Of a stretch of DNA of 64,000 bases, positions 3,784-18,574 are shown piece after piece. Made by a program: the position numbers and the translations under genes. Every line of letters starts with the position of its first letter. The stretch's first letter is position 1. The DNA is from Desulfobacterales bacterium (lineage in GTDB: Bacteria > Desulfobacterota > Desulfobacteria > Desulfobacterales > UBA5852). The stretch is from assembly GCA_963674755.2 (NCBI GenBank), contig CAXXVS010000002.1, positions 800,001 to 864,000 of the forward strand, written 5' to 3'. The notes beneath the pieces were generated by a model that saw only the letters and a list, made by a program, of their open reading frames with translations, made no database searches and was not told the origin of the DNA.

Positions 3784-4184
3784 AAGAAGGCGCTTTGGTC
3801 AGCTTCAATTTAGCATGAACGGGAGGGAAGCGGCGCTGATTTGAATCGGGTTTACCCTGTTGAGGGGGATGAGAAATTTGAGTTTTTCCTTGATAAAGCG
3901 CTATTTTTTCTGCTATTTATGAAAAATCATGCGTCAATTTGGCATTTGTATCAGGTTTGGAAAAAAGGCCTGTAGGCCTTTTGACAGGCATAAGCCAAAA
4001 CGTGACCACGTTCGCATGCAATGCAAGATGCATGCGAAATTTCGCCAGCGTAGGTTATTCTTGAAACCGAAACCGCAGGATACCATGGATTTGCTTAAAA
4101 GGCTGGCCGTCAAAAGATCGATCGAACAAAAGATTACGAACCCTTACAGGGCGTGACCCATACATATTTAGGGAGGTACTTCAA

Positions 4185-4589
4185 TTGTCATATACGCTTG
4201 GGCAGAAACAGCTTGATAGTATAGACGAAATCCTTCAGACCGATTTGGTGGATATTGGCGTGCATTGCGTTTTCCTTATCGATATGTCTGGCAATATTAT
4301 TGCCAGTTTAGATGATGGTGAGAATAGACACGATATTTATTCGCTCGCGGCTCTGGCGGCCGGTAACTTTGGTGCGGTGAGCGCGATGGCCAAGATCATC
4401 GGTGAGGGCGAATTTTCATTGCTGTTTCATAAAGGTAAAAAAGAAAATATCCACTTTAGCAAGGTTTTGACCGAATTTTTATTGATTACGCTTTTTGGTA
4501 ATGACCTTTCGCTTGGTTTCTTGCGGTTGAAGGTTGCCGAATCGGTTGAAAAAATAAAAAAGATTTTAGAACCGATTCACACCCCATAA
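4185..4589 (+). CDS. mglB: Roadblock/LC7 protein, MglB-like GAP
   Basis: LIDMSGNII, SLAALAAGNFGA, GEGEFSLLFHKG, SLGFLRLKV; GGAGG RBS before the TTG start; adjacent to an MglA-like GTPase. Confidence 0.85.
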   Translation: MSYTLGQKQLDSIDEILQTDLVDIGVHCVFLIDMSGNIIASLDDGENRHDIYSLAALAAGNFGAVSAMAKIIGEGEFSLLFHKGKKENIHFSKVLTEFLLITLFGNDLSLGFLRLKVAESVEKIKKILEPIHTP

Positions 4590-4644
4590 CGCGCCGTTCT
4601 ATATCAATATAAATGACCGACCGCAAACGCTAGGTATAATCTCA

Positions 4645-5250
4645 ATGGCATTCGTCAATCTAAAGAAAAAAGAAGTTCAGGTTAAAATCGTCTATTATGG
4701 TCCCGGTAGAGGCGGAAAAACGACAAATCTTGAGTATATCTATGCAAAGTTCAATGAACGAATTCAGACTGAGATGGTGACCGTCAAGACACATGGTGAC
4801 CGAACGTTGTTCTTTGATTTTTTGCCGATCGATATCGGTAAAATTAATGGATATACCGCTAAGATGCAACTCTATACCGTACCGGGACAGGTCAAATACA
4901 ACGCAACGCGGCGGTTGGTTTTAAGAGGCGTCGATGGAATAGTGTTTGTGGCTGACTCAATGGCGGTGAGAAGAGAAAAGAATATTCTTTCGCTCAAGAA
5001 TCTTCATGAAAACTTAAAAAATTATAAAAAAAGTATTTTTTCCATCCCCTTGGTTTTTCAATACAACAAGGTCGATTTGGCCGAACAGGGGATACCGTTG
5101 CTGCCGTTTGCGACCATGGAAAAAGATCTCAACAGTCAACTCAAACGCCCTGCTTTCGAAGCCAGCGCGGTAACGGGATCAAATGTTGTTCCTACCCTGA
5201 AAAAGATTATTACAATGACCATGGCCTCGATAAAGGACGAATTAAAATAG
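4645..5250 (+). CDS. mglA: MglA-family small GTPase
   Basis: KIVYYGPGRGGKTTNL, DRTLFFDFLP, YTVPGQVKY, QYNKVDL, FEASA: MglA-type G1-G5 motifs. Confidence 0.93.
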   Translation: MAFVNLKKKEVQVKIVYYGPGRGGKTTNLEYIYAKFNERIQTEMVTVKTHGDRTLFFDFLPIDIGKINGYTAKMQLYTVPGQVKYNATRRLVLRGVDGIVFVADSMAVRREKNILSLKNLHENLKNYKKSIFSIPLVFQYNKVDLAEQGIPLLPFATMEKDLNSQLKRPAFEASAVTGSNVVPTLKKIITMTMASIKDELK

Positions 5251-5260
5251 GAGGATACTG

Positions 5261-5950
5261 TTGAAGAGCGATGCCAAACAAAGCAAAGTAGATAGCGATT
5301 TGGCGGATCGACTTGATACCCTTTTTGATGAAACCGATTCAGATGAGAGTTCCGCCCACAAAAAAGGCCAATCGAATGATCCTCTGGATGAACTCAAGTC
5401 GCTGGTCATGTCGATTGAATGGGAAATTACCGATGAGGTGATGGAGCGCTTCCTATCCCAAATTGATTTCCTTAAAACGCGTTTTGAAGAAGACCGCATT
5501 CTGGTCATGTTCCTTCAGTTGTTGGGCTCGCTTGGGTTGTATATCAAGACGAATAAGGGCAAGGCGCATCCCAACGCTTTCAAACTATTGAATTCCGTGT
5601 ATTCAGGTTTTGAAGATGCCACCTCGCCGGGGAAATTGTCCCCTTCGGAAAAGAAGAAACTGCTTTATGTCGAGCTGAACAAATACAAAGAACTAAAGGA
5701 ACAGATCGAATCAACGCGGAGCCCTGAAAACGAACCGCCGCGAATACCAGAGACGGTTGCCGGACGAGGCAGTGGACAAAAAGCAGCTGCCAATGAAACC
5801 CGTCAAATGGCCAACGTTAGCGAATCAGCACATAGTGGCCTGCTATCCCAAGCACATTTCGATGAAGTTGTAGATGCGATGAAAGCATTGATTTTGAAAG
5901 AACTATCCGGAATACGCGAAGATATAGCACGTTTGGCTAAGTCCAAATAA
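5261..5950 (+). CDS. Hypothetical helical protein in the mgl locus
   Basis: 229 aa ORF, GGAGG RBS, 10 nt after mglA; no motif recognised. Confidence 0.75.
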   Translation: MKSDAKQSKVDSDLADRLDTLFDETDSDESSAHKKGQSNDPLDELKSLVMSIEWEITDEVMERFLSQIDFLKTRFEEDRILVMFLQLLGSLGLYIKTNKGKAHPNAFKLLNSVYSGFEDATSPGKLSPSEKKKLLYVELNKYKELKEQIESTRSPENEPPRIPETVAGRGSGQKAAANETRQMANVSESAHSGLLSQAHFDEVVDAMKALILKELSGIREDIARLAKSK

Positions 5951-6058
5951 ACGCATGCGATTTTGTGAGTGTTATAGCGATTAAGTTCATAGACATAGGA
6001 GGAGCTAATAACGACTGGCAATTGCGACGCGATGTTGAAGAATATAGGGAGGTAAACG

Positions 6059-6529
6059 ATGGATTTTGCGTCCGGTGATATTTCTGTGCTCGTTTTCAAA
6101 CCAGTCGTAAGGGACGATGTAGGGAATTTTTCCCTCGATGGCCACATGTTGAGCGTCCTCATGGCGTTGGATGGAGAAAAAACGCTTGGCCAAATTGCCC
6201 AGCAGGCCAACCTAAACATGGCGACGATCAGGGAGGCTGTCAGAAAACTTTTCGAGCTTAAACTGGTCGAAATCATAAAACAAGATATTCAGTTTCTCGA
6301 CCAGGATTTTATATCGTTTTTAATTTCCGAAATGTCGCTCGCCATCGGCCCCCTCGGAGAGGTGATTGTCGAGGATGGTATCGAGGATCTGGGGTATAGC
6401 AAAACCACCTTTCCAACGAACCGCGCGGCCGAGTTAATCAACATGCTGGCGCGAGAAATCCAAAGGGATGAAAAGAGAACCGAATTCAAGCAGAGCATGG
6501 TAAACAAAATTAGAGAAAAAGGCTACTGA
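6059..6529 (+). CDS. Hypothetical protein with a probable N-terminal winged HTH
   Basis: LSVLMALDGEKTLGQIAQQANLNMATIREAVRKLFELKLVE fits a wHTH pattern; GGAGG RBS. Confidence 0.7.
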   Translation: MDFASGDISVLVFKPVVRDDVGNFSLDGHMLSVLMALDGEKTLGQIAQQANLNMATIREAVRKLFELKLVEIIKQDIQFLDQDFISFLISEMSLAIGPLGEVIVEDGIEDLGYSKTTFPTNRAAELINMLAREIQRDEKRTEFKQSMVNKIREKGY

Positions 6530-6673
6530 AGAGAATGTATCTAAAATCCGAACTGATAGTACAGGGCACTGACGGTTGTCTGGAAAATGGAGAAACGAAA
6601 TTTATTCCGAGAAATGTAAAAAATGTTCTGCTATGTTGTCGATACAGCGATACCGTAGATAAGGAGTGCGGCT

Positions 6674-8029
6674 ATGATCGTTATTTGTGAAGAGTGCGGA
6701 AAAAAATATAAAATCGACCCCGCGAAAATTAAAGGCGAACAAGCACGATTCAAATGCAAAGCGTGCTCGCATATTATTACCGTAAAAAAGCAAGAACCAG
6801 TTGAACAGAGCGTACCCGAACTGGAACCTGTATTCGAATCCCAACCGGTGCTTGAAGATGTCGACAAAAGTAGTGGTTATCAGGCCGAAGAGACAACGCC
6901 GGACCAAGCCGCGGAGCCGTCAGCACCTTCAACCGCTAAGCGGGTCGCGCGTCGCAAAAAAAAGACGGGCATGGGACTCACCAGCAAGGTCATTCTGTTG
7001 ATGCTTCTGGTCAGCTTGGTGCCGGGCGCGATTTATTTTATCATTTCCTTCAAACAGACCAATGATCGCATCGTGCAAGACACCACGCGTTTTGGTACCC
7101 AAACCACGAATGCCTTGGCCAATGAAGTCAGCGAATGGGTCGATAAGAATGTTCGCGTCCTTAATACTGTGGCTCAGCTGCCAGGTATTCAATCAATGAA
7201 TCGATTCGAGCAAGAGATTCTTCTCAAGGCCGTGCAGAAGGAATACCCCTGGATGTATCTTGTTTTTACGACGGATATCAATGGAATGAATATCGCCCGT
7301 AATGACGACAAGGACCTTAGAGACTATTCCGACCGGCAATATGTTCAAGACATTACCTCCGGCAAGGCACTTGCCTGGCAGAATTTGATCGGGAAAACAT
7401 CTAAACAGCCAGCTTTGGTTATCGCTGTTCCCATTCAAAAAAACGGCCAGACGATCGGTGTAATGGCCGCGGCAATGACACGTGACACCATCAGCAAAAG
7501 AATTGCGAACTGGCGTGAAGGTAAAACCGGATATGCGTTTTTGGTCGATCAAGACGGCAAGGCGTTGGCTCATCCTAAAAAGGCATTTGTCGAGCAGCAG
7601 AAAGATTTAAGCCAGGATCCTCTGGTTAAGGCTGCGCAAGCCCGAAAGAGCGGCCTGATAGAGTTTACCGATGCCGACGGACAGGCCGAAATAGGCTTTG
7701 CCCAGAAAACCCCCCTGGGATGGACACTTGCCATTCAACAATCGAAGGCAGAGGCTTTTGCTCTTCTTAAAGAAGCACAAATATTTGCGCTTATTTTGAT
7801 GGGGGCCACTTTCATCATCGTTGTGGCGATCGCCTATATTGCGAGCCGTGCTATAGTAATGCCCATCCGCAAGTTGACGGATGCCGCGAACCGCATCAGT
7901 GTCGGCGAGTTAGGGGTTGAAATAAAAACGACGTCGAAGGATGAAATCGGTGATTTGGCGGAAGCTATTACGCGCATGCAGGATAGTATCCGCTTGTCCA
8001 TTGAAAGGCTTAGACGTCGTCGAAGGTGA
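6674..8029 (+). CDS. Membrane sensor: MJ0042-type zinc ribbon, TM, dCache, TM, HAMP; no output domain
   Basis: MIVICEECGKKYKID...FKCKACSH; two hydrophobic segments; Cache motifs DYSDRQYVQ and GKTGYAFLVDQDGKALAHP; HAMP PIRKLTDAANRISVGEL...DEIGDLAEAITRM followed closely by the stop. Confidence 0.88.
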   Translation: MIVICEECGKKYKIDPAKIKGEQARFKCKACSHIITVKKQEPVEQSVPELEPVFESQPVLEDVDKSSGYQAEETTPDQAAEPSAPSTAKRVARRKKKTGMGLTSKVILLMLLVSLVPGAIYFIISFKQTNDRIVQDTTRFGTQTTNALANEVSEWVDKNVRVLNTVAQLPGIQSMNRFEQEILLKAVQKEYPWMYLVFTTDINGMNIARNDDKDLRDYSDRQYVQDITSGKALAWQNLIGKTSKQPALVIAVPIQKNGQTIGVMAAAMTRDTISKRIANWREGKTGYAFLVDQDGKALAHPKKAFVEQQKDLSQDPLVKAAQARKSGLIEFTDADGQAEIGFAQKTPLGWTLAIQQSKAEAFALLKEAQIFALILMGATFIIVVAIAYIASRAIVMPIRKLTDAANRISVGELGVEIKTTSKDEIGDLAEAITRMQDSIRLSIERLRRRRR

Positions 8030-8126
8030 CGTTATCGGTCGATTACGGGATACTCATGAAACCCAGCCCAATTTATAAAATACAATCAGGCTGGGAAACG
8101 ACCCCACCAATTGGAAAGTGTAGTTA

Positions 8127-9128
8127 ATGATTGTAATACCTAAAGAGAACCCTGTTATCGCTAACTTAAACAGTTACTATGTTCAGGTTGATCGGCTTAT
8201 CGAGCACTTTCAAGGCGAAGTCGGGTGCGGTTGCTTGCATTTTCACTCACTATCGTCGGAAGGGATTTTGTTTTTTGATAAAGACGAAGTCCTCAACGGA
8301 CTATTTTTACAGAAGAAAGGAACAATATCAGGTAAGCCAGCTATTGACGCCCTAATCAAATCGTCTGCAGAAACCAATTATGCTTTAAACGTCTATATTC
8401 TACGGTCAGAAGATATCTACTTCTGGTCGACGATTCCGGAGGCTAAGAGAATTTATCAGGACCTTACCACGGAATTTACCGATCTAGAAGGTTTGATAAA
8501 AAAAATGACCTCCGAAGGGCTAACCGGGTTTATTGAAGTGGTTATTAAGGAAAACAATGGGGGCGGGCTCGTTTTTTTTAACAATGGCGGTATTTCCGGT
8601 GGCTCCTATTCATGGGGCAGAGGTGATAGTACCAGGGGAAAAGCTGACCATGACAGACTAATCCAATTAACCAAGGACTATGGCGGTGCTTTTCATGTGA
8701 GCCGTATATCGATGACCGGAAACGATAAGCCTCTTGAAGAAGACGTTGATCTGGAACCAGAAGAACTTAGTGAAAAGCCTTCCAGCAGGATTGTAACCGC
8801 AATGGGAGAAATGATTGCCATATTTGAACGCACTGTCAAATCTATGAAAAATGTGAATTCTGATTTTGCAACTATGTTAAATCGCAAATTTGTTGAGAAA
8901 GCAGATCGTTATCCTTTTCTAGATCCTTTTGCCGCCGAGTTCAAATATGCAAACGAGGAAATTGTTTTTGATGGTGTTACAACCGACGAGGAATTGACGA
9001 GAGGCATCCTGGAGTCTATTGCCGAACTATCCGTTGAGTTAAACGTCTCGCAACAATTCAAAAATAACCTCATCACATGGATGAAGAAATATAAGGAAGA
9101 GGTCCAAACCTACGGCATTAGCTTTTAA
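8127..9128 (+). CDS. Hypothetical protein with two DUF4388/PATAN-like repeats
   Basis: Internal repeat: NLNSYYVQVDRLIEHFQGEVGCGCLHF..EGILFFDKDEV vs DLTTEFTDLEGLIKKMTSEGLTGFIEV..GGLVFFNNGGI. Confidence 0.6.
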   Translation: MIVIPKENPVIANLNSYYVQVDRLIEHFQGEVGCGCLHFHSLSSEGILFFDKDEVLNGLFLQKKGTISGKPAIDALIKSSAETNYALNVYILRSEDIYFWSTIPEAKRIYQDLTTEFTDLEGLIKKMTSEGLTGFIEVVIKENNGGGLVFFNNGGISGGSYSWGRGDSTRGKADHDRLIQLTKDYGGAFHVSRISMTGNDKPLEEDVDLEPEELSEKPSSRIVTAMGEMIAIFERTVKSMKNVNSDFATMLNRKFVEKADRYPFLDPFAAEFKYANEEIVFDGVTTDEELTRGILESIAELSVELNVSQQFKNNLITWMKKYKEEVQTYGISF

Positions 9129-9412
9129 TCGTCAGTCCAAAATCAGCTGTCTTTCGCTTCTTCATTGATATCCGAAATCCATAAAAGGGTTTTGGACCTC
9201 ATCCTTACAGAAGCCAATTATGATTCTGTTAAATGCTGAGGAAGGGGGCCGGAATGACCGGCTTAAAAAGTCTACAACCTTTTTACGGCAGTTTCCTTTC
9301 CAGTGGTTTGAAACGCTTCATCAATAAGGGAGTGCCTAAAAGGAATTGGCTCTATTTGCGACGTTTATGAGAATGGATGCTTCTCTCAGCTTACGCCAAG
9401 TGCTAGGACGCC

Positions 9413-10444
9413 ATGGACAAGACGGCATTTTCTAAAATAGATGCTTCCCTGAGAAGCTACGCGGAATTCGTAAGGAATTTACCGGTTGCCGTATATCGGA
9501 CCACACTTGAAGGCAGAATCGCATTTTGCAACGACCCCTTTGCACGTATTTTCGGTTTCGACTCGGTAAACGATGTCATCGGTTTTCCAGAAATTAAACT
9601 TTACCGCAACAAAAAGGACCGGGGAACTCTGGTGCAATCCGTCATGCAGCGCGGAATCATCAGCGAAATGCCAGTTGCTTTTACAAAACGCGACCACATG
9701 CCCATTTGGTGCGCCGTAACGACTAAAGCCACCATCGATGACGATGGTGAAGTGGCCTTTTTAGATGGACTTGTCAGAGATATTACTGGAGAAATTGAAG
9801 AAACGCAGCGTCATGATAACGGCATTGATCATATAAACGCGATCAATGTCCCGGCGTTCATTTTCGACGCACAAGGAATTGTTCTGGACGCGAATAAATC
9901 CGGAGCACAAATTCTTGGATGCCCTGCAAGCAATTTAAAAGGGAAATCCTTCGCTGATTATCTAACCAACGATGACCAACAGCTATTTTTCCTTTTTTTA
10001 GGTGATACAATCCGTATCGGCGGGGAAGAAATTATCCTTCAAATACCAGTCGATAGGAAAGAAAGGAAATATGTACGACTACATGCCGCTGTTGTAAAAT
10101 CGGATGGTGGCACGAGACAGATCAATTGCATCGTGAATGATGTTACCGAGCGTATAAAAACGATCCGCGAAAAGACTAACAGGGATAAATTTCAGGGCGT
10201 TCTCGAAATGGCTGGGGGTGTGGCCCATCGCATTAACCAGCCTTTGACCATCGTTAATAACATAATTAACGAAGCCTTCACAGGGCTTACGGCCGAAGAT
10301 CATCTTTATGATAGCCTTGTTAAAATGCGCACTCAAATACAGAAGCTGAATGAGATTACTAAAAAAGTCGGTAGTATAAAAAAGTATGAAGCGATCGATT
10401 ATGTCGCCGGGGTCAAAATTGTCGATATCGATAAGGCTTCTTAA
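9413..10444 (+). CDS. PAS-PAS protein with a HisKA-like H-box but no HATPase domain
   Basis: PAS motifs (GRIAFCNDPFARIFGFDS; GIVLDANKSGAQILG); H-box EMAGGVAHRINQPL; protein ends about 70 aa later with no N/G1/F/G2 boxes. Confidence 0.82.
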   Translation: MDKTAFSKIDASLRSYAEFVRNLPVAVYRTTLEGRIAFCNDPFARIFGFDSVNDVIGFPEIKLYRNKKDRGTLVQSVMQRGIISEMPVAFTKRDHMPIWCAVTTKATIDDDGEVAFLDGLVRDITGEIEETQRHDNGIDHINAINVPAFIFDAQGIVLDANKSGAQILGCPASNLKGKSFADYLTNDDQQLFFLFLGDTIRIGGEEIILQIPVDRKERKYVRLHAAVVKSDGGTRQINCIVNDVTERIKTIREKTNRDKFQGVLEMAGGVAHRINQPLTIVNNIINEAFTGLTAEDHLYDSLVKMRTQIQKLNEITKKVGSIKKYEAIDYVAGVKIVDIDKAS

Positions 10445-10455
10445 AACAATTTAAG

Positions 10456-11487
10456 GTGAAATTAATGATACGCAGTGTCCTTTTTGTAGATGACGACAGG
10501 GAAATGCTGCAGGCCCTGAAAGAGGGCCTGGAGAAGTATCGCGAAACTTTCAGTGTCGTATTGGCCGAGGACGGCACGGATGCGGTTGGCAAGCTTAAAA
10601 ACAACAAAATTTCGCTTGTCGTAACGGATCTAAAGATGCCGAACATGGACGGCTTTAGCCTGCTTGCCCACGTTATGGAAAAATATCCCGATATCCCTGT
10701 AATTATTATTACAGGGTACAGTACGTCAGAAATGAAAAGGCTGGCGCAAGAGGGAGGGGCCGTAGGCTATATCAGCAAGCCTTTTCTTATTGAAGACCTT
10801 GCCAAGCAAATTATGAAAACCTTACGGAAAGAGTCTGACGGTGGCACGTTGCACGGCGTATCCTCAGGCATGTTTCTGCAGTTGATGGAAATGGAAGAGC
10901 GAACCTGTACGATTCGCCTGACTGATCGCACAAGTCAAAAATCCGGCGTATTGTTTTTTCGCGATGGAACTCTTTTAGATGCACGGGCTGGTGACATGCA
11001 GGGTTTAGATGCCGCCTATGTTATTTTCAGCTGGGAAGAAGTGACCCTGTCCATACAGAATGAATGTCTGCAAAAGGATAATAAGATTAACTCCGACCTG
11101 CAACCGATCATCTTGGAAGCAATGCGGTTGAAGGATGAAGCCGAAGATGATGAGAATGAATTGGGCATAGATGAGACGATTGAAGAAATCGAGATTGTTG
11201 ACGCTGAGGAATCATTCGTTGACAAAGTAAAAGGGCTTTTAAACAAGAATGTTGGCGATCGCTGCGGGCTTGAAGATATTTACCAAGATAACAGTATGCA
11301 AAAAGTCGTCAATGCCGTTGCAGAACTGGGACCGATTTTCCAAATTGGTATGTTTAAAATTGGCTACCTTGATCATGGTGCCAATACCGACACCATCGTT
11401 TTGAACGGGAATCCGGCGACGACTATAAGCGTCAACCCGAAATGCCCTCGCGATAAAATTATTCAAGTGTTGAATGACGCCTTATAG
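10456..11487 (+). CDS. Response regulator receiver fused to a DUF4388/PATAN-like domain
   Basis: VLFVDDD, VVTDLKMPNMDG, ITG, SKPF; then GTLHGVSSGMFLQLMEMEERTCTIRL..GVLFFRDGTLLDA..ILEAMRLKDE. Confidence 0.88.
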   Translation: MKLMIRSVLFVDDDREMLQALKEGLEKYRETFSVVLAEDGTDAVGKLKNNKISLVVTDLKMPNMDGFSLLAHVMEKYPDIPVIIITGYSTSEMKRLAQEGGAVGYISKPFLIEDLAKQIMKTLRKESDGGTLHGVSSGMFLQLMEMEERTCTIRLTDRTSQKSGVLFFRDGTLLDARAGDMQGLDAAYVIFSWEEVTLSIQNECLQKDNKINSDLQPIILEAMRLKDEAEDDENELGIDETIEEIEIVDAEESFVDKVKGLLNKNVGDRCGLEDIYQDNSMQKVVNAVAELGPIFQIGMFKIGYLDHGANTDTIVLNGNPATTISVNPKCPRDKIIQVLNDAL

Positions 11488-11547
11488 ACCGAACATTGCG
11501 AATCGAAAATGGTGGTTTCGTCTATGATCTAGTAAAAAAGGGCTAAT

Positions 11548-11895
11548 ATGGAAGCGCATTTCAAAGATATTATGGCGATTAAAGGTGTTCAGGGTGTCAT
11601 TTTACTGGATGCCGACGGAAAGGTTGTTTTTGAGTCTGTGCCCTCTTTGCGAACGGAAATGAGACAACGCTATACGAACTGGAAAAAGCTCATCGATACG
11701 CTTGGAAACATACGGGAAGCCGATTTTGTATTTGATAACGGAAGAGTGTATCTACGACAGAGCGAAAATGGCTACTTGATTATCAGCATGCAATCGTTCG
11801 CTTCCATTGCGATGGTAAAGTTAAACTGCGATATTTTGCTTCCTCAGTTAAAATACGACAAGAGCAAAGGCTTGAAGGCTCTCTTTCGAAGATAA
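11548..11895 (+). CDS. Second roadblock/LC7-like small protein
   Basis: DIMAIKGVQGVILLDADGKVVF and SIAMVKLNCD; 115 aa. Confidence 0.6.
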   Translation: MEAHFKDIMAIKGVQGVILLDADGKVVFESVPSLRTEMRQRYTNWKKLIDTLGNIREADFVFDNGRVYLRQSENGYLIISMQSFASIAMVKLNCDILLPQLKYDKSKGLKALFRR

Positions 11896-12031
11896 TGATT
11901 GTTATTACAATGAATTTAGCCGGATAACATTGCAGAACATATTCGATGTATTTTCGATAATGAGTTGATGATAGTTACTATTGCCAGTGACGCATCAAAT
12001 TGCACTGGTCTTCAATTGTTGAGAGTGAAAA

Positions 12032-14413
12032 ATGCCTAAAGCGGAACAGTCCATAAAATCTGATACGAATGCTAAAATCAATGAAGCGGAAGTATGCTTC
12101 TCGATGGGGCTTCTTGATGAGGCATTAGCGATATTTAATAAAGTCCTTCAGGAAGCTGCTGATCTTGATGAAAACAACAGAGAAAAAATTGTTGCCAAGG
12201 TTGCGGAAATTAGTAAGCAAATCGAAGAACAGAAAAACGATGAGGCCGTGAGCGTTTCAACTGAAGAAATATCGATGTTGAAAAAGTCGCTATCCGGTGA
12301 GGAAGATGCAACCGCAATAATAGATAGCGCATCGGCTTTCAAGGATTTGGGACTCTATGAAGAAGCATTGTCGGAGTACGAAAAACTGCTTGTTTTAGAA
12401 AAACCGACGGAAAAAGTTGTCCCGGACATTGTTGACTGCCTTCTGAAATTATTTTCACCTAACGATTTATTCGATAAAATTCTTAAGATCGTGGGCGACC
12501 AGAGATTGGAGGCGGAAAAACGGGGAATTGCCAAATACTATTTTGGCCTTGAAATGGAAAAGCGTGACTATCGCGACTTAGGGTTAGACCTCTATGAAGA
12601 AGCAGAAAAAGATATTCCGGATGACCCTGAGCTACAGAAACGAATAGAAACGCTACGATCCCGGCTATCTAGTGGATCCAAGTATGATTTCCTTTTGCGT
12701 CAGCAGATGGTCACAACTGAACAACTTCAAAAAGCGGCTTCGCTTTCCAAACAGACGCGTAAAAGTGTCGAAGCGGTTCTGATTGAAAATTTTGGAATTA
12801 AAAAGGAAGATATCGGAAAATCCTTTGCTCAATTTTACGGCTGCACCTTTCACCCTTATGCGGAAGATTTGGTAACACCATACGAGCTTTTAGGAAATCT
12901 GAAAAAAGCCTTTCTGCTACATGAACTCTGGGTGCCGCTGAATTGGGGCAAAGATGGCGTCGAGGTGCTCGTAGACGATCCGCGTGATCTAAACAAGACC
13001 GATAACATCAAGGCCTTGATGAAAACCGGTAAAATCAACTTCTGTGTTGCGATCAGAGAAGACATAGAAGCTTATATCAAGCGGTTTTATTCAACTGATC
13101 AGTATAGCGATATGGGGCAGGGGGGGGAAGCCCTCGACAATTTCGACGACATCCTAGATGTGTCTTTTGAAGAAGAGGACGAGGTCGACGAAGCGATTGA
13201 CGAGCTTGATGAAAGCTCTAGCAAAGTCGTCAAGCTTGTTGATCAATGCCTCATTGCGGCCTATCGCAAAAATGCATCCGACATCCATATTGAGCCCTCA
13301 CCCCAAACCAAATCGACAAATATTCGGTTTAGAATGGACGGCGTCTGCCAGGATTATATCAAAGTTCCCAATTCGCTTGCCAGAGGTCTTCTGAGTCGAA
13401 TCAAAATTATGTCGAATCTTGATATCGCCGAGCGGCGATTGCCGCAAGATGGCAAAATTAAATTTAAAAGAAAGGGCATTCCGCCTTTTGAACTCCGTGT
13501 GGCTACCCTTCCAACCGCAGGCGGCTATGAGGACGCGGTTTTGCGAATTCTAGCTACGGCCGGAGCTATGAAACTTGAAGATATGGGTTTGGAAGACCGC
13601 AATTATAAAGTTCTCACCAGCGCCATCGCCAAACCATACGGTCTTGTATTGTGCGTGGGTCCCACCGGTTCCGGTAAAACAACCACTCTGCACGCCGCCT
13701 TAGGGCATATCAACAAACCCGGAGTTAAAATATGGACCGCTGAAGACCCCGTAGAAATTACACAACTCGGGTTGCGGCAAGTTGAAGCCAAACCGAAAAT
13801 CGGGTTGGATTTTGCGAGAATTATGCGCGCGTTCCTGCGTGCCGACCCCGATGTGATCATGATCGGTGAGATGCGTGACGAGGAAACCGCCTCCATCGGT
13901 GTAGAAGCTTCCCTTACCGGGCATCTCGTATTTTCAACCCTTCATACGAACAGCGCCCCTGAAACGGTTACACGGCTGCTCGACATGGGGCTCAACCCGC
14001 TCAACTTTTCAGATGCTTTCCTGGGGGTGTTGGCCCAAAGGCTTGTTCGGCGACTTTGTACATGTAAAAAAGAATATCATCCCACCAAGGATGAGTTCGA
14101 ACAAATTGTGGAAGACTACGGATCCGCTTATTTCCCGAAATCGGGCATTGAGTACAGCGAAGACCTCACGATCTATCGCGCGGGGAGCTGTGAGAAATGT
14201 TCCGGAACCGGATACAAAGGACGCATGGGAATCCATGAATTGATGGATGGCAGTAAAACCATCAAAAGACTCATCAAACAGGCCGCTCCCACAGACCAAC
14301 TTTTTGAACAAGCCATCGAGGAAGGCATGTCTACCTTGAAACAGGACGGCATCCATAAGGCCTTCAGAGGCATTACTGATTTGGTGGAGGTGAGACGCGT
14401 GTGCATCAGTTAG
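12032..14413 (+). CDS. PilB/GspE-family secretion/pilus ATPase with an N-terminal TPR-like extension
   Basis: ASDIHIEP, LDIAERRLPQDG, Walker A GPTGSGKTT, TAEDPVE, LRADPDVIMIGEMRD, STLHTN; N-terminus has TPR-like helices (FSMGLLDEALAIFNKVL, FKDLGLYEEALSEYEKLL). Confidence 0.92.
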   Translation: MPKAEQSIKSDTNAKINEAEVCFSMGLLDEALAIFNKVLQEAADLDENNREKIVAKVAEISKQIEEQKNDEAVSVSTEEISMLKKSLSGEEDATAIIDSASAFKDLGLYEEALSEYEKLLVLEKPTEKVVPDIVDCLLKLFSPNDLFDKILKIVGDQRLEAEKRGIAKYYFGLEMEKRDYRDLGLDLYEEAEKDIPDDPELQKRIETLRSRLSSGSKYDFLLRQQMVTTEQLQKAASLSKQTRKSVEAVLIENFGIKKEDIGKSFAQFYGCTFHPYAEDLVTPYELLGNLKKAFLLHELWVPLNWGKDGVEVLVDDPRDLNKTDNIKALMKTGKINFCVAIREDIEAYIKRFYSTDQYSDMGQGGEALDNFDDILDVSFEEEDEVDEAIDELDESSSKVVKLVDQCLIAAYRKNASDIHIEPSPQTKSTNIRFRMDGVCQDYIKVPNSLARGLLSRIKIMSNLDIAERRLPQDGKIKFKRKGIPPFELRVATLPTAGGYEDAVLRILATAGAMKLEDMGLEDRNYKVLTSAIAKPYGLVLCVGPTGSGKTTTLHAALGHINKPGVKIWTAEDPVEITQLGLRQVEAKPKIGLDFARIMRAFLRADPDVIMIGEMRDEETASIGVEASLTGHLVFSTLHTNSAPETVTRLLDMGLNPLNFSDAFLGVLAQRLVRRLCTCKKEYHPTKDEFEQIVEDYGSAYFPKSGIEYSEDLTIYRAGSCEKCSGTGYKGRMGIHELMDGSKTIKRLIKQAAPTDQLFEQAIEEGMSTLKQDGIHKAFRGITDLVEVRRVCIS

Positions 14414-14439: not shown

Positions 14440-14490
14440 AACGGCGAAGGTCTTCGGCACTATCATCAAACCCTTCGCCGTTTATTATTT
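14440..14490 (+). terminator. Hairpin closing the mgl-PilB locus
   Basis: AACGGCGAAGG (14440-50) pairs with CCTTCGCCGTT (14472-82), followed by TATTATTT; the 21 nt loop is large for a terminator. Confidence 0.45.
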
Positions 14491-16968: not shown

Positions 16969-17469
16969 TTAAAAATGAATATGACGATATGCAAAACGGT
17001 CACCTACGATTTCGATCTGCGCCATGCTGGGCTTATGCCCATCCCGCGGGAAGGAAGGGCTTCCGGGGTTTAGGTAGAGCACCCCATTTTGTTGCACCGC
17101 GGCCGGGCGATGGGTATGGCCGCTGATGACAATGCGAACATCGGCACTCGCCGGGTCGATGCTGATCCTATGCAAGTCATGAATCACATAGATGAGGATA
17201 TCACCCGCCTCCACAAATTCTTCATAAGGCAGCCCTTGCGACCATTGGCCCAAGTCCATGTTGCCACGAACGGCCTTGACCTTATCGGGTTTGCCAAGAG
17301 CTTGCAGGATCTCCGGTCTGTCAATGTCACCGGCGTGGAGAACAAGATCCATATGGCATAGACAATCCATCACGTTAGGGGCAAGCCGGCCGTGCGTATC
17401 GGATAGCACGCCGATGGTCAGCGGAGAGGGGCGGCCACTAGGATCGGCGTGGTGGTCTTTAAGGCGCAT
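16969..17469 (-). CDS. Metallophosphoesterase, YfcE/MJ0936 family
   Basis: SDTHG, HAGD, RGNMD, SGHTH, LNPGS; start set at ATG 17469. Confidence 0.9.
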   Translation of the reverse strand: MRLKDHHADPSGRPSPLTIGVLSDTHGRLAPNVMDCLCHMDLVLHAGDIDRPEILQALGKPDKVKAVRGNMDLGQWSQGLPYEEFVEAGDILIYVIHDLHRISIDPASADVRIVISGHTHRPAAVQQNGVLYLNPGSPSFPRDGHKPSMAQIEIVGDRFAYRHIHF

Positions 17470-18574
17470 GGTAGAGATTATCGGCAAAAACAAGCAGCAA
17501 CCCGCTTAAGTGCGGGGGCATGCTGTTAAATTCAATCCCAACCGCCTGGGAATCGCGGCCCTCATTGGAGATGGTTTGCGACCAAACAATCGTGCCCTTT
17601 ATGCTCAAAGCCATGACATCGTTCGGCGGCCCCATCAAAATGTTGACCGTTTTCCCGATCAGCAAGTGGGATGGTGGTGATTGGGAACTCTCTTCAAGGA
17701 CGAGACAGGCACCACCGATGGACAGGTCCCGGGTAACCCCATAGAGGTCGGCCATCGGCGTTATGCCATCATCCTCAAACACTTTTAGTGAAATCTGCAC
17801 CGGGATAGTGTGCCGACGCATTTTCCGCTCGACAAACGGGGCGGGCGCCAATTTGCGGCAGTTTTCAAACAATTCCCTGACAGCGGTTCCTACCGAAGGA
17901 AACGCCTTACTGATTTCCAACAGATTTTCGCGCCCTATCTTGGCCAATTCCACCCGGGTCGCTGTTTCCGTATAGGATTGCGAATAGCGCTCTTTATCGA
18001 GAGGGCACACATCACCAAAGACCTCTTCTGCGATGTTTTCAATGATAGGATTCTGATCCTCATCGCTACGAACGGAAGGGTAGATACGGCGATGGAGCCT
18101 ACCGGAAACCACCATGAAAAGGGTGTTTTCGGGGTCCCCGAATTTTTTAACCATTTTCCCCGCCGGCAGAACGATGCGTTCCAGGCGGGTCACCACCGCA
18201 ATAAATTCCCGGAATGAAAGCCCGGCAAAGAACATGTTTAACGGTGTTGAGCGTGGGTTGTTTTCGATGAGGCTATGATAGAACGTCTTGATGGACTTGA
18301 AGGAAGGTTTAACGATTTGCCATTGAAGCATTTTGGCGACAACCGCCTGGAGGACGTGCCCCGATTCCACGAATAGACCGGCGGCTTTTTTAAAATATTC
18401 AGCGGCGGCGGAGGACTTGCGTTTGACCAATAAATCGGCCAAAGCGCGGTGGAGATGCGGGTTGCCCGGAAAAATCTTCAGCATGCTCTGGAATTCACCG
18501 ATCGAATCAATGGTGATTGAGCCGTCGATAATTTGCTTCACGATGCTGCTTTGCATTTTAACGGGTTCGGTCAT
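17459..18574 (-). CDS. Cyclic-nucleotide-binding-like domain plus PilZ domain protein
   Basis: cNMP-like KKFGDPENTLFMVVSG..EVFGD; PilZ RKMRR (RxxxR) and DLSIGG (DxSxxG), GIEF. Confidence 0.8.
   Translation of the reverse strand: MTEPVKMQSSIVKQIIDGSITIDSIGEFQSMLKIFPGNPHLHRALADLLVKRKSSAAAEYFKKAAGLFVESGHVLQAVVAKMLQWQIVKPSFKSIKTFYHSLIENNPRSTPLNMFFAGLSFREFIAVVTRLERIVLPAGKMVKKFGDPENTLFMVVSGRLHRRIYPSVRSDEDQNPIIENIAEEVFGDVCPLDKERYSQSYTETATRVELAKIGRENLLEISKAFPSVGTAVRELFENCRKLAPAPFVERKMRRHTIPVQISLKVFEDDGITPMADLYGVTRDLSIGGACLVLEESSQSPPSHLLIGKTVNILMGPPNDVMALSIKGTIVWSQTISNEGRDSQAVGIEFNSMPPHLSGLLLVFADNLYHAP

Follow-up and report, generated by a model that had tools for sequence, protein, structure and literature searches.

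A Desulfobacterota gene cluster linking a Group 1 MglA switch and a separate MglB-tail-like protein to a TPR-PilB-family ATPase

The closest described counterpart of the locus studied here is the polarity module of Myxococcus xanthus with its T4aP branch, which several studies describe as comprising MglA, MglB, MglC, RomR/RomX, RomY, SgmX and PilB (PMC7519303; PMC9481161; PMC11580455). In Myxococcus, recruitment of PilB by SgmX, an effector of MglA, is attributed to an "unknown mechanism" (PMC11580455), and the C-terminal helix of MglB blurs GAP and GEF roles, its purpose remaining open (10.1101/2024.10.31.621274). The same helix is bound by the zinc ribbon of GltJ (PMC11135422). Group 1 MglA proteins are defined by features that include an intrinsic arginine finger beside the G2 threonine (PMC4316618). 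Supplementary table rows of the latter study list Group 1 mglA-mglB loci in Desulfatibacillum, Desulfobacterium and Desulfobulbus, with a 201-aa MglA, an MglB and a PATAN neighbour. Two further groups of systems bear a partial likeness to the present locus: the cyanobacterial PatA-type (PATAN-REC) regulators of PilB1, in the presence of DUF4388/PATAN and a receiver beside a PilB-type ATPase (10.1101/2021.06.11.447907), and the actinobacterial conservons (CvnA-D, with a Group 2 MglA), as operons of a membrane sensor, a roadblock, a small winged-helix protein and a small GTPase (PMC4316618).

The MglB-MglA-g3 core and a possibly relocated tail motif

The window, i.e. the whole stretch of 64,000 nt that was analysed, contains the following features.

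4185..4589, + strand: g1, MglB-type roadblock, predicted GAP, 134 aa (roadblock/MglB domain calls)
4645..5250, + strand: g2, small GTPase of MglA Group 1, 201 aa (match to M. xanthus MglA at E 2e-50)
5261..5950, + strand: g3, no known family, 229 aa (directly after mglA in 80/80 loci)
5297..5332, + strand: short motif of g3, residues 13-24 (family consensus EVExRLDxLFGE)
6059..6529, + strand: g4, winged helix and DUF8082, 156 aa (Pfam wHTH matches below cut-offs; DUF8082 from Atlas)
6674..8029, + strand: g5, zinc ribbon, acidic linker, TM, dCache_1, TM, HAMP and short conserved basic tail (domain calls; TM by eye)
8127..9128, + strand: g6, two PATAN/DUF4388-like repeats, then a C-terminal domain unassigned to any family, 333 aa (homologue matches, repeat alignment)
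9413..10444, + strand: g7, PAS-PAS-DHp without catalytic ATP-binding domain (PAS calls; DHp profile)
10456..11487, + strand: g8, intact receiver, PATAN/DUF4388 and cryptic C-terminal roadblock (REC-DUF4388 calls; fold of the C-terminus)
11200..11484, + strand: residues 249-343 of g8, third roadblock domain (AF2 model and structure searches)
11548..11895, + strand: g9, divergent roadblock, 115 aa (weak profile matches)
12032..14413, + strand: g10, TPR (1-215), degenerate MshEN and PilB/GspE-family ATPase (domain calls)
14440..14482, + strand: terminator-like hairpin after g10 (11-bp stem, 21-nt loop, T-rich tail)

The open reading frame list of the window confirms the ten co-directional genes of the original prediction, all on the + strand between 4185 and 14413 and separated, from g1 to g10, by 55, 10, 108, 144, 97, 284, 11, 60 and 136 nt. 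The hairpin said to end the cluster is likewise present, and a comparable stem with a T-run lies 3' of g10 in 4 of the 12 relatives examined; against shuffled sequence it has a z of -2.05 (6/200 shuffles), and the terminator scan of the window did not list it. Conservation was followed in 80 GTDB loci at order level (Desulfobacterales-type), 50 of which, those with at least 9 kb downstream, are informative for the distal genes.

The locus resembles the Myxococcus module in its Group 1 MglA with R53/Q82, MglB roadblock, extra roadblocks, receiver-containing regulator, and TPR plus PilB as the likely output. In contrast to the scattered Myxococcus genes, however, those studied here are clustered, MglB lacks the Ct-helix while g3 carries a look-alike, TPR and ATPase form a single chain, and g8 has a REC-PATAN-roadblock architecture unlike RomR. 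No orthologue of RomR, RomX, RomY or SgmX was identified among the ten cluster genes, none of which has the architecture described for RomR. The supplementary table rows mentioned above hold MglA, MglB and PATAN only; they describe neither g3 nor the receptor nor TPR-PilB.

The g1 protein has an MglB-type roadblock fold with the MglA-binding surface matched, and its alignment with M. xanthus MglB (6h5b_B, E 1e-19) runs to about residue 131, the protein stopping four residues further on. It lacks an acidic C-terminal helix like that of Myxococcus MglB, and none of 79 order-level g1 homologues has an I[DE]xLF terminus. In g2 the catalytic residues are intact, with R53, T54, TVPGQ (78-82) and NKxD (141-144) invariant across 38 homologues, and judged by these motifs it is a Group 1 MglA with an intrinsic arginine finger; an MglB dimer is predicted to stimulate its GTPase activity.

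The N-terminus of g3 forms an acidic amphipathic helix, followed by a five-helix bundle (41-153), a low-confidence linker and a C-terminal helix (197-228); domain-family searches with g3 matched no family. Its motif, EVExRLDxLFGE, resembles the MglB tail consensus EITDDDIDNLF. L18 and F22 are invariant in 60 homologues, the strict pattern occurs in 70/80 loci, and distant homologues carry up to four copies of the motif helix, while the window copy taken alone does not rise above shuffles (107/500). The comparison with the described allostery of the MglB Ct-helix (PMC6785124; PDB 6IZW) is close in that both helices are acidic and amphipathic and have a D and an F at a spacing of three residues, and in that g2 retains the K181 and L64/I67 positions of MglA. 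It differs in that the helix stands here at the N-terminus of another protein and that K185 is replaced, being basic in 0/80 order-level MglAs, 71 of which have K at 182. Position 181 is K/R in 77/80 order-level loci. It is also K/R in 20/20 tail-less loci, despite a report that the basic MglA residues are not conserved where MglB has no helix (PMC6785124).

Distribution points in the same direction as the motif. In a sample of 20 low-scoring and 20 high-scoring MglBs, picked by score, all 20 low-scoring proteins end in I[DE]xLF and g3 is absent from all 20, whereas none of the 20 high-scoring ones has this tail; the gene following these 20 tail-less mglBA pairs begins with the motif in all 19 cases in which its start is visible (16 strict, 3 variants, 1 cut off). 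A profile built from g3 picks the MglB tail as the best window in 19/20, with individually weak matches (24-103/300 shuffles). The regulatory MglB tail thus appears, from these sequence patterns, to have been transferred to another protein, g3, although the tailed and tail-less MglBs are two clades and not independent, so that a single event may account for the swap. The g3 family is present in 51 of 301 sampled Desulfobacterota genomes. As modelled, the g3 core resembles a CheA-P1/HPt-like five-helix bundle without a phospho-histidine: its best natural structural matches are CheA P1 domains (1i5n, Z 12.3, rmsd 2.9, 111 aligned, where Z below 13 is common for helical bundles), and a phospho-accepting His is neither present in helix 58-74 of g3 nor conserved there in 60 homologues, the position of helix B having been set by eye.

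The TPR-ATPase and the pilus question

The g10 protein retains intact Walker A/B, Asp-box and His-box motifs together with the zinc cysteines, and carries an N-terminal GspE_N/MshEN. It scores 497 and 462 bits, below the PilB and GspE cut-offs, and by the TIGR02538 (PilB) cut-off of 675.65 it is not a canonical PilB. A c-di-GMP-binding MshEN was also rejected (21 bits against a cut-off of 38 for NF053729), with the RLG of RLGxxL missing from the family consensus. Comparison of the g10 TPR with SgmX revealed no specific likeness. In a quick tree, the g10 clade is separate from canonical PilB (SH-aLRT 100), beside it in an unresolved fork, and shares a long branch with a GAF-ATPase paralogue.

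These features leave some room, in our view limited, for a switch as described whose TPR-ATPase would power a T2SS/MSH-like machine, or act as a sensor-fused (TPR, GAF) PilB-like signalling hub, instead of serving type IVa pili. Besides the sub-threshold scores and the long-branched clade, this would fit the five pilC/gspF genes and six secretin-family matches of the source genome, the PilQ matches above cut-off in only 5/10 genomes, and the TPR proteins without ATPase that end in a PilZ-like domain (by eye) in 6/50 informative loci. However, each of the four T2SS/MSH-like clusters of the source genome has an ATPase of its own, the motor motifs of g10 are intact, and canonical PilB is mostly not found alongside TPR-PilB: in a count that scored only four candidates per genome, a PilB match at 1e-190 is lacking in 15/20 TPR-PilB genomes and present in 188/281 other genomes, with canonical PilB in 3/20 and sub-cut-off matches in two more. 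In all 10 checked TPR-PilB genomes without canonical PilB, a T4aP-type pilC is present and neither pilB nor pilT lies within 1.5 kb of it. A link of g10 to the pilus is also favoured by one genome in which the sole other ATPase of this type sits near its own secretin. The source genome encodes pilM, pilQ, pilC and two pilT with no linked pilB, together with three other orphan PilB-like ATPases potentially able to serve the pilus.

Conserved order and dispensable inputs

The neighbourhood analysis proposed for the MglA homologue shows that gene order is kept across the 80 loci more than expected by chance, although the proteins are only 30-45% identical. All ten genes occur in 19/50 informative loci, the TPR-ATPase in 38/50 and a TPR in some form in 44/50, which upholds the proposed tie between an MglA/MglB module of Desulfobacterota and a TPR-PilB ATPase. 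It is g3 and the TPR domain that are conserved best as partners, ahead of the receptor. A module of MglB, MglA and g3 with a general role in polarity or positioning, in which ATPase, receptor pair and PAS gene would be independently recruited neighbours that have a transcript or a stretch of chromosome in common but no single pathway, is an improbable reading that draws on the loss of g4-g5, g6, g7 and g10 each from some loci (with g1-g3 alone in 4/50), on the recurrence of g4-g5 elsewhere in the genome, on the canonical PilB that replaces TPR-PilB in many g3-bearing genomes, and on the 284-nt gap dividing the cluster. It accounts poorly for an order maintained at such low identity and for a link between mglA and TPR that recurs at a second mglA and holds across families, reduced forms included. 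Five genomes at a greater distance have the order mglB-mglA-g3-TPR-PilB with no gene between, at another locus mglA lies directly 5' of TPR-PilB, and all three mglA genes of the source genome adjoin a g10-type TPR or PilB-like gene.

The receptor pair is dispensable, being absent from 9/50 informative loci, four of them otherwise complete. The g5 N-terminus carries a CxxC...CxxC ribbon, with zinc ribbons in 52/52 homologues, and its best PDB matches are 7zok (GltJ, E 7e-4) and 2nb9 (E 5e-3), so that by sequence it is a GltJ/ZitP-type ribbon. Like GltJ (PMC11135422) and Caulobacter ZitP, g5 is a membrane protein with an N-terminal ribbon of this kind; it differs in having no GYF domain and a TM-sensor-TM-HAMP body. 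A domain search found no output enzyme domain after HAMP. The sensor is variable, reaching dCache size in only 11/52 homologues and with almost no periplasmic domain in 8/52; the dCache of g5 is a local swap. The g4 protein, whose DUF8082 clusters at a score of 0.97 (Atlas), accompanies g5 and always stands before the receptor gene; two g4 paralogues elsewhere in the source genome each lie 5' of a HAMP membrane protein gene, so that the pair recurs twice.

The two DUF4388-like units expected from the original prediction exist, as two repeats within the single gene g6 and not as two genes. They align with each other and with the DUF4388 of g8; the window g6 protein had no Pfam match, and 11/38 homologues match DUF4388 at E<=0.1. 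For g7, expected to be PAS-HisKA, PAS domains and a DHp helix pair were found, the latter by a profile matching solved kinases (best E 2e-6), while a Pfam search returned neither HisKA nor HATPase. In histidine kinases the residue at H+1 is acidic; in g7 His272 is kept and the 20 homologues matched, among 25, all carry R, K, N or S at that position, and g7 is predicted to be a phosphatase or phosphotransfer partner of g8. It is dispensable, occurring in only 20/50 informative loci. The g8 receiver retains D12/D13/D58/T86/K108, with D58 in 47/53 homologues. Its C-terminus, which Pfam did not detect as a roadblock and the original prediction overlooked, is modelled by AF2 with a pLDDT of 90 and matches 9jue (VIA Z 8.7, rmsd 2.5, 88 aligned, with roadblock-fold proteins filling the first 16 rows; Foldseek prob 1.0, E 1.5e-3). 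The g9 roadblock match is weak (Pfam E 0.048; 12/39 homologues match). The gene always follows g8, the g8-g9 pair is duplicated in one locus, and g9 is the probable dimer partner of the g8 roadblock. The cyanobacterial PatA-type systems differ from this arrangement, which has the order REC-PATAN-roadblock, no chemosensory cluster and a GTPase coupling.

The cluster indeed holds no complete kinase, cyclase or MCP. Its description as self-contained with a periplasmic input is nevertheless not supported, because some loci do without the receptor pair or the PAS gene and the receiver needs an outside kinase; phosphorylation from such a kinase is likely since the receiver is intact, which also argues against signalling by protein contacts only. 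Very little speaks for a conservon-like transcriptional output running from the receptor through the GTPase to a DNA-binding g4: g4 has weak wHTH matches and its place before the receptor, and conservons likewise combine a sensor and a roadblock with a small protein and a GTPase, but g4 is dispensable, the sensor comes without a kinase, a motor ATPase is included, and DUF742, the family of CvnC, is not among the best 25 of 32 families for 42 g4 homologues. A Group 2 conservon GTPase (no arginine finger, GTPGQ) is ruled out for g2 by R53 and TVPGQ, which weakens the analogy drawn originally, and a CvnA histidine kinase with ATPase domain by g5 ending after HAMP and g7 having no ATPase domain.

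A candidate route from switch to motor

We regard it as fairly probable that the cluster, made from recut Myxococcus-like parts, uses a Group 1 MglA switch to gate the extension ATPase of a type IV pilus. Parts, folds, synteny and distributions are its observed basis, from which we infer every protein contact. The tail-less MglB would be a plain GAP. Probably, g3 would serve as a separate tether and exchange factor, its N-terminus supplying in trans the Ct-helix that in Myxococcus inserts from the MglB tail into the alpha5 pocket of MglA and stimulates nucleotide exchange. We lean slightly towards MglA-GTP then binding the g10 TPR, for which the SgmX-MglA contact is a precedent, and thereby recruiting or licensing the motor at a pilus apparatus whose genes lie elsewhere; the fusion would let one chain do the work of two, SgmX and PilB.

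Optional inputs would tune the GTPase cycle. The cognate MglB of g5 has no helix and the ligand of its zinc ribbon must therefore be another protein; that this is the g3 helix, by analogy with GltJ and the MglB helix, is possible, if short of probable. As the cytoplasmic partner of g5, g4 would complete the pair. An outside kinase would phosphorylate g8, opposed by g7, and so control a PATAN contact with the motor, for which PATAN-PilB1 is a precedent, as well as a g8/g9 roadblock heterodimer that would be either a further GAP or an adaptor of the MglC type. Docking of the histidine-less g3 bundle onto the g8 receiver, in the manner in which RomX links the RomR receiver to MglA, is a rather unlikely addition. 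More doubtful still is the full picture of a Desulfobacterota branch in which MglB was split into a pure GAP and pseudo-HPt trans exchange/tether factors (g3, sometimes multivalent), a kinase-less zinc-ribbon/HAMP receptor sequesters the helix, a phosphorylation-controlled roadblock heterodimer is the second GAP, and MglA-GTP directly licenses a TPR-ATPase replacing canonical PilB.

New here are the tail-less MglB with the g3 motif, the P1-like core of g3, the g8 roadblock, the GltJ/ZitP-type ribbon, and TPR-PilB genomes mostly without canonical PilB yet with pilC. With the TPR fused to the motor and the helix on its own protein, the cluster resembles a natural experiment addressing both the SgmX-PilB and the MglB-helix question, which become approachable with small soluble domains in a simpler system for how switches turn pili on. 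The full picture, if true, would place a receptor-to-GEF-to-GTPase-to-motor pathway within one bacterial operon. The cluster would also give a function to the unnamed family of g3 and offer a first handle on the control of pili, and with it of attachment, movement and partnerships, in abundant sediment sulfate reducers.

Layout and base composition of the cluster

An ORF reading of the window recovered the ten predicted + strand genes (g1–g10) where they had been placed, flanked by an acetyl-CoA hydrolase/GNAT gene on one side and rsmG on the other. The features are as follows:

4002-4058: hairpin 5' of g1 with a near-palindromic arm (z -2.89, 2/200 shuffles)
4185-14413 (+): MglB (g1), MglA (g2), g3, wHTH protein (g4), receptor (g5), DUF4388-like (g6), PAS-DHp (g7), REC-DUF4388 (g8), roadblock (g9), TPR-PilB (g10)
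14440-14482: terminal hairpin (z -2.05)
17459-18574 (-): gene 3 kb 3' of the cluster, encoding cNMP-binding and PilZ domains after an N-terminus that looks TPR-like by eye

The gene labels of the original prediction hold overall, with corrections for g6, g7 and g9. The supposed pair of DUF4388-like genes is a single gene, g6, containing two weak repeats; a DUF4388 match at E<=0.1 was obtained for 11 of 38 homologues and not for the g6 protein of the window. In g7, labelled PAS-HisKA, the DHp helix pair was found but the ATPase domain is absent, and the roadblock label of g9 is tentative (12/39 homologues match). The terminal hairpin is present but modest, and a similar one recurs in 4/12 relatives examined. 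A hairpin 3' of g6 is weak (z -1.69), and apart from this and the hairpin 5' of g1 the remaining intergenic regions fold no better than shuffles. Counts from the promoter and terminator scans stayed close to chance expectation (20 vs 22.7 and 30 vs 21.4, respectively). Of the sampled words, 15% were present in one metatranscriptome, whose short contigs (longest among the matches listed 265 nt) do not bear on co-transcription.

The GC content of the cluster is 44.7% compared to 59.9% in the window beyond 16 kb. Orthologous clusters in three close relatives are likewise AT-rich. Recent horizontal transfer is unlikely as the source of the low GC, since close relatives carry the same flanking genes and the cluster lies below its upstream DNA in GC in 10/10 relatives examined.

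An apparently displaced MglB tail in g3

By its sequence g2 is assigned to Group 1 MglA, which is defined by an R finger/TVPGQ-type residue set (PMC4316618), since R53, T54, TVPGQ and NKxD are invariant across 38 homologues. MglB of M. xanthus carries an acidic C-terminal helix (D150-D152, D154, F157) that promotes nucleotide exchange and occupies a pocket on MglA comprising K181, K185, L64 and I67 (PMC6785124). In contrast, g1 lacks this helix: its alignment to M. xanthus MglB runs to about residue 131, shortly after which g1 stops. A search with g2 against GTDB genomes yielded 136 relatives, of which the best 80 were retained, mostly from Desulfobacterales, Desulfobacteraceae or deltaproteobacterial MAGs. 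None of 79 MglBs from these order-level loci has the I[DE]xLF ending, 8 of the 79 have another tail of 30-31 residues, and the close homologues retrieved in an MglB search are all tail-less. MglA position 181 is K or R in 77/80 order-level loci and in 20/20 distant tail-less loci; K185 is kept in 19 of the latter, and position 185 is basic in 0/80 order-level MglAs.

Directly after mglA, g3 is found in all of these 80 best loci. Its acidic N-terminal helix resembles the MglB tail and has the consensus EVExRLDxLFGE, with L18 and F22 invariant in 60 homologues. The pattern [LIV][DE]x[LFMI]F is present in 70/80 g3 proteins, at a density of ~3.6 per 1000 residues vs 0-0.55 in neighbour proteins. 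The relation between helix and tail was followed in a 301-genome phylum search, from which 20 low-scoring and 20 high-scoring MglB loci were taken, the latter picked for an absent or merely weak g3 match. Each of the 20 low-scoring MglBs carries an EITDDDIDNLF-like C-terminal tail, and 0/20 of their loci (one cut by a contig end) have g3 nearby. That tail is absent from all 20 high-scoring MglBs, and the gene following mglA begins with the motif in 16 of these loci and with a leucine variant in 3, one being cut off. Distant g3 homologues carry the motif as IEDTIDDLF or AFSAIDELFSE, in up to four copies. With a profile of 41 g3 motifs the tail is the best window in 19/20 tailed MglBs, at scores equalled by 24-103/300 shuffles; the motif score of the window g3 is equalled by 107/500. 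Conversely, the tail profile places its best window, ending in F, within the first 60 residues of 64/80 g3 proteins and of 2/79, 5/58, 10/49, 0/66 and 18/50 members of five neighbour families. Taken together, these distributions suggest a transfer of the MglB tail to g3, possibly in a single event, since the tailed and tail-less sets are two clades, and we infer that the g3 N-terminus would bind MglA.

In a structure prediction the g3 core (residues 41-153) reaches pLDDT >95. Its best natural match is CheA P1 (Z 12.3, rmsd 2.9, 111 aligned; Foldseek probability 0.94, E 0.33), no Foldseek match reached E<=0.001, and helix B of the core lacks a histidine. A CheA-P1-like bundle is therefore offered as a lead, such scores being common for helical bundles. 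In the Atlas, g3 matched unnamed clusters only. RomY, whose conserved part is described as an N-terminal 89-residue globular domain, is set apart from g3 by that description, the two layouts being unlike. In five loci (L136, L141, L143, L146, L147) the g3 homologues reach 790-1350 aa; they repeat the P1-like domain in tandem and have several LDxLF motifs within acidic linkers.

The candidate TPR-PilB motor

The ATPase motifs of g10 are intact and its TPR domain is N-terminal, the TPR profile matching generic TPR structures only. Its c-di-GMP motif is degenerate (21 bits vs a cut-off of 38), it scores under the PilB and GspE cut-offs, and in a quick tree (39 rows) it falls in a clade of its homologues plus a GAF-fused paralogue, separate from canonical PilB. 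The source genome (G000) has eight PilB/GspE-like genes, four of them beside their own pilC/gspF, and no pilB is linked to its T4aP-type pilC, pilM, pilQ or two pilT genes.

A TPR domain in an ORF of 728-850 aa was found in 20 genomes of the phylum sample, G000 included, with the ATPase confirmed by alignment in 14 including G000 and assumed from length in 6. With four candidates scored per genome, a PilB match at 1e-190 is absent in 15 of these 20; two of the rest have sub-cut-off PilB matches and three a canonical PilB. Such a match is found in 188/281 other genomes and in 19/20 genomes with tailed MglB. Ten of the 15 were examined for pilC, PilQ and further ATPases. All ten have a T4aP-like pilC, scoring 487-582 bits against a cut-off of 700, without pilB or pilT within 1.5 kb; in 12/16 fetched canonical pilB loci, pilC lies at most two genes away. 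PilQ is above cut-off in five of the ten, and all ten encode one to four further ATPases (39-48% identity), three of them also a 59-61% identity paralogue. Because of these ATPases and the PilQ counts, g10 is the best rather than the sole candidate for the extension motor. That its ATPase instead serves another machine or a signalling role seems unlikely.

The TPR protein SgmX of M. xanthus is a binding partner of MglA-GTP and brings in PilB by a mechanism that the papers do not give; MglA and PilB were not found in direct contact with each other (PMC7519303, PMC11580455). Elsewhere in G000, a second mglA (L004:5953-9190; G000:C2:983950-987190; 60% identical, no mglB) is preceded by a g10-type TPR protein and followed by a DUF4388-cNMP-cNMP protein and a PilZ protein. 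A third, orphan mglA (L005:8771-13239; G000:C2:1735770-1740240; 39% identical) sits in a cluster of genes for kinases, HD-type proteins and receivers, and a REC-fused PilB-like ATPase follows two genes later. The closest g10 paralogue is an orphan GAF-fused PilB-like ATPase (L117:6950-9265; G000:C2:894950-897265; 49% over the core), with similar paralogues of 766-776 aa in G225, G278 and G282. At the operon end of L070, L072, L074, L079, L081, L086 and L104, a PilZ-like domain replaces the ATPase after the TPR (RxxxR and NxSxxG motifs by eye; no Pfam PilZ match at 1e-3).

Conserved core, with proposed regulatory arms and switch

A check of the neighbourhood around mglA showed the ten-gene order kept in 19 of 50 informative loci, i.e. 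those with >=9 kb downstream. A further 12 lack g7 alone, six are without g6 and g7 and close with an ATPase-free TPR protein of 343 aa, four lack g4, g5 and g7, four are reduced to g1-g3, and five show other patterns, each single. In the phylum sample MglB is present in 124/301 genomes and g3 in 51/301; mglA lies within 1.5 kb of g3 in 29/29 fetched relative loci and 22/29 phylum-sample loci. Five distant genomes (L181-185) have mglB-mglA-g3-TPR-PilB alone, and in L226 TPR-PilB immediately follows mglA. Gene-loss patterns and these reduced loci point to MglB, MglA, g3 and TPR as the conserved core, with the receptor, originally read as a periplasmic input, as an add-on that some loci lack together with g4. 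A merely loose gene cluster around a polarity core is quite improbable.

The zinc ribbon begins 52/52 g5 homologues >250 aa and a strict RMQxSxRxSxERL tail ends 38 of them; the periplasmic part is dCache-sized in 11, intermediate in 33 and nearly absent in 8, and g5 of L047 and L053 gave no Cache match. The best PDB matches of the ribbon are GltJ (7zok) and 2nb9, which we take to be ZitP. The GltJ ribbon of M. xanthus attaches to the C-terminal helix of MglB and increases GAP efficiency fourfold (PMC11135422), whereas g1 offers no such helix, so that by analogy g3 may be the natural ligand of the g5 ribbon. A link between g3 and a receptor is supported by L089:10616-11683 and L102:3491-4540, in which g3, two TM segments and HAMP form one chain directly before TPR-PilB. 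Gain and loss of g4, a wHTH-DUF8082 protein, parallels that of g5; conservon-like transcription control is very improbable. G000 has two more wHTH-DUF8082 and HAMP membrane protein modules without enzymatic output (L119:7058-10390, L120:7058-9138), of which one has a zinc ribbon and lies ahead of two probable solute-binding proteins; the modules may be a receptor family of their own that lacks a kinase. The same type of ribbon is fused to a ParA/MinD ATPase (L121:8950-9909) that belongs to a chemotaxis cluster and has a REC-DUF4388 gene nearby.

The original proposal that signal would pass by protein contacts is not borne out as stated, and the cluster does not appear free of phosphorylation, since the g8 receiver is intact (D58 in 47/53 homologues, E in 5/53) and g7 keeps its histidine. 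The H+1 residue rule guides the reading of g7, in which H+1 is R, K, N or S in 20 matched homologues of 25. Lacking the ATPase domain, g7 cannot phosphorylate itself and more likely acts as phosphatase or relay. Its ending, a DHp plus short tail (window 10160-10444), recurs at G000:C2:1371076, C3:2600458, C1:621540 and C1:654895, so that DHp proteins lacking an ATPase domain may constitute a family. The C-terminal 95 residues of g8 (pLDDT 90) are predicted to fold as a roadblock (VIA Z 8.7, rmsd 2.5, 88 aligned; Z 7.4 for MglB itself; Foldseek probability 1.0, no match at E<=0.001). Profile comparisons of g9 with g1 and of the g8 C-terminus with g9 gave probabilities near 1%. Constant adjacency of g8 and g9 and their joint duplication in L108 suggest a heterodimer. 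PATAN domains of Synechocystis bind PilB1 (10.1101/2021.06.11.447907).

The component parts are not new, and the supplementary table of PMC4316618 records PATAN genes in the neighbourhood of mglA-mglB for this lineage; no 'Desulfo' entry was found in those supplements of PMC6785124 that were covered. The part of the literature that was covered yielded no description of the cluster, g3, a trans-encoded MglB helix or a TPR-fused PilB (further literature: PMC9481161, 10.1101/2024.10.31.621274, PMC11656802, PMC11343762). The most likely mechanism, which we regard as reasonably probable, is an MglA switch whose folds, residues and distributions are observed and whose contacts are all inferred. In it, g3 would load or tether MglA, g1 and perhaps also g8/g9 would turn it off, and MglA-GTP would engage the g10 TPR and license pilus extension, with the receptor pair and a phosphorylation arm of g7/g8 as tuning inputs.
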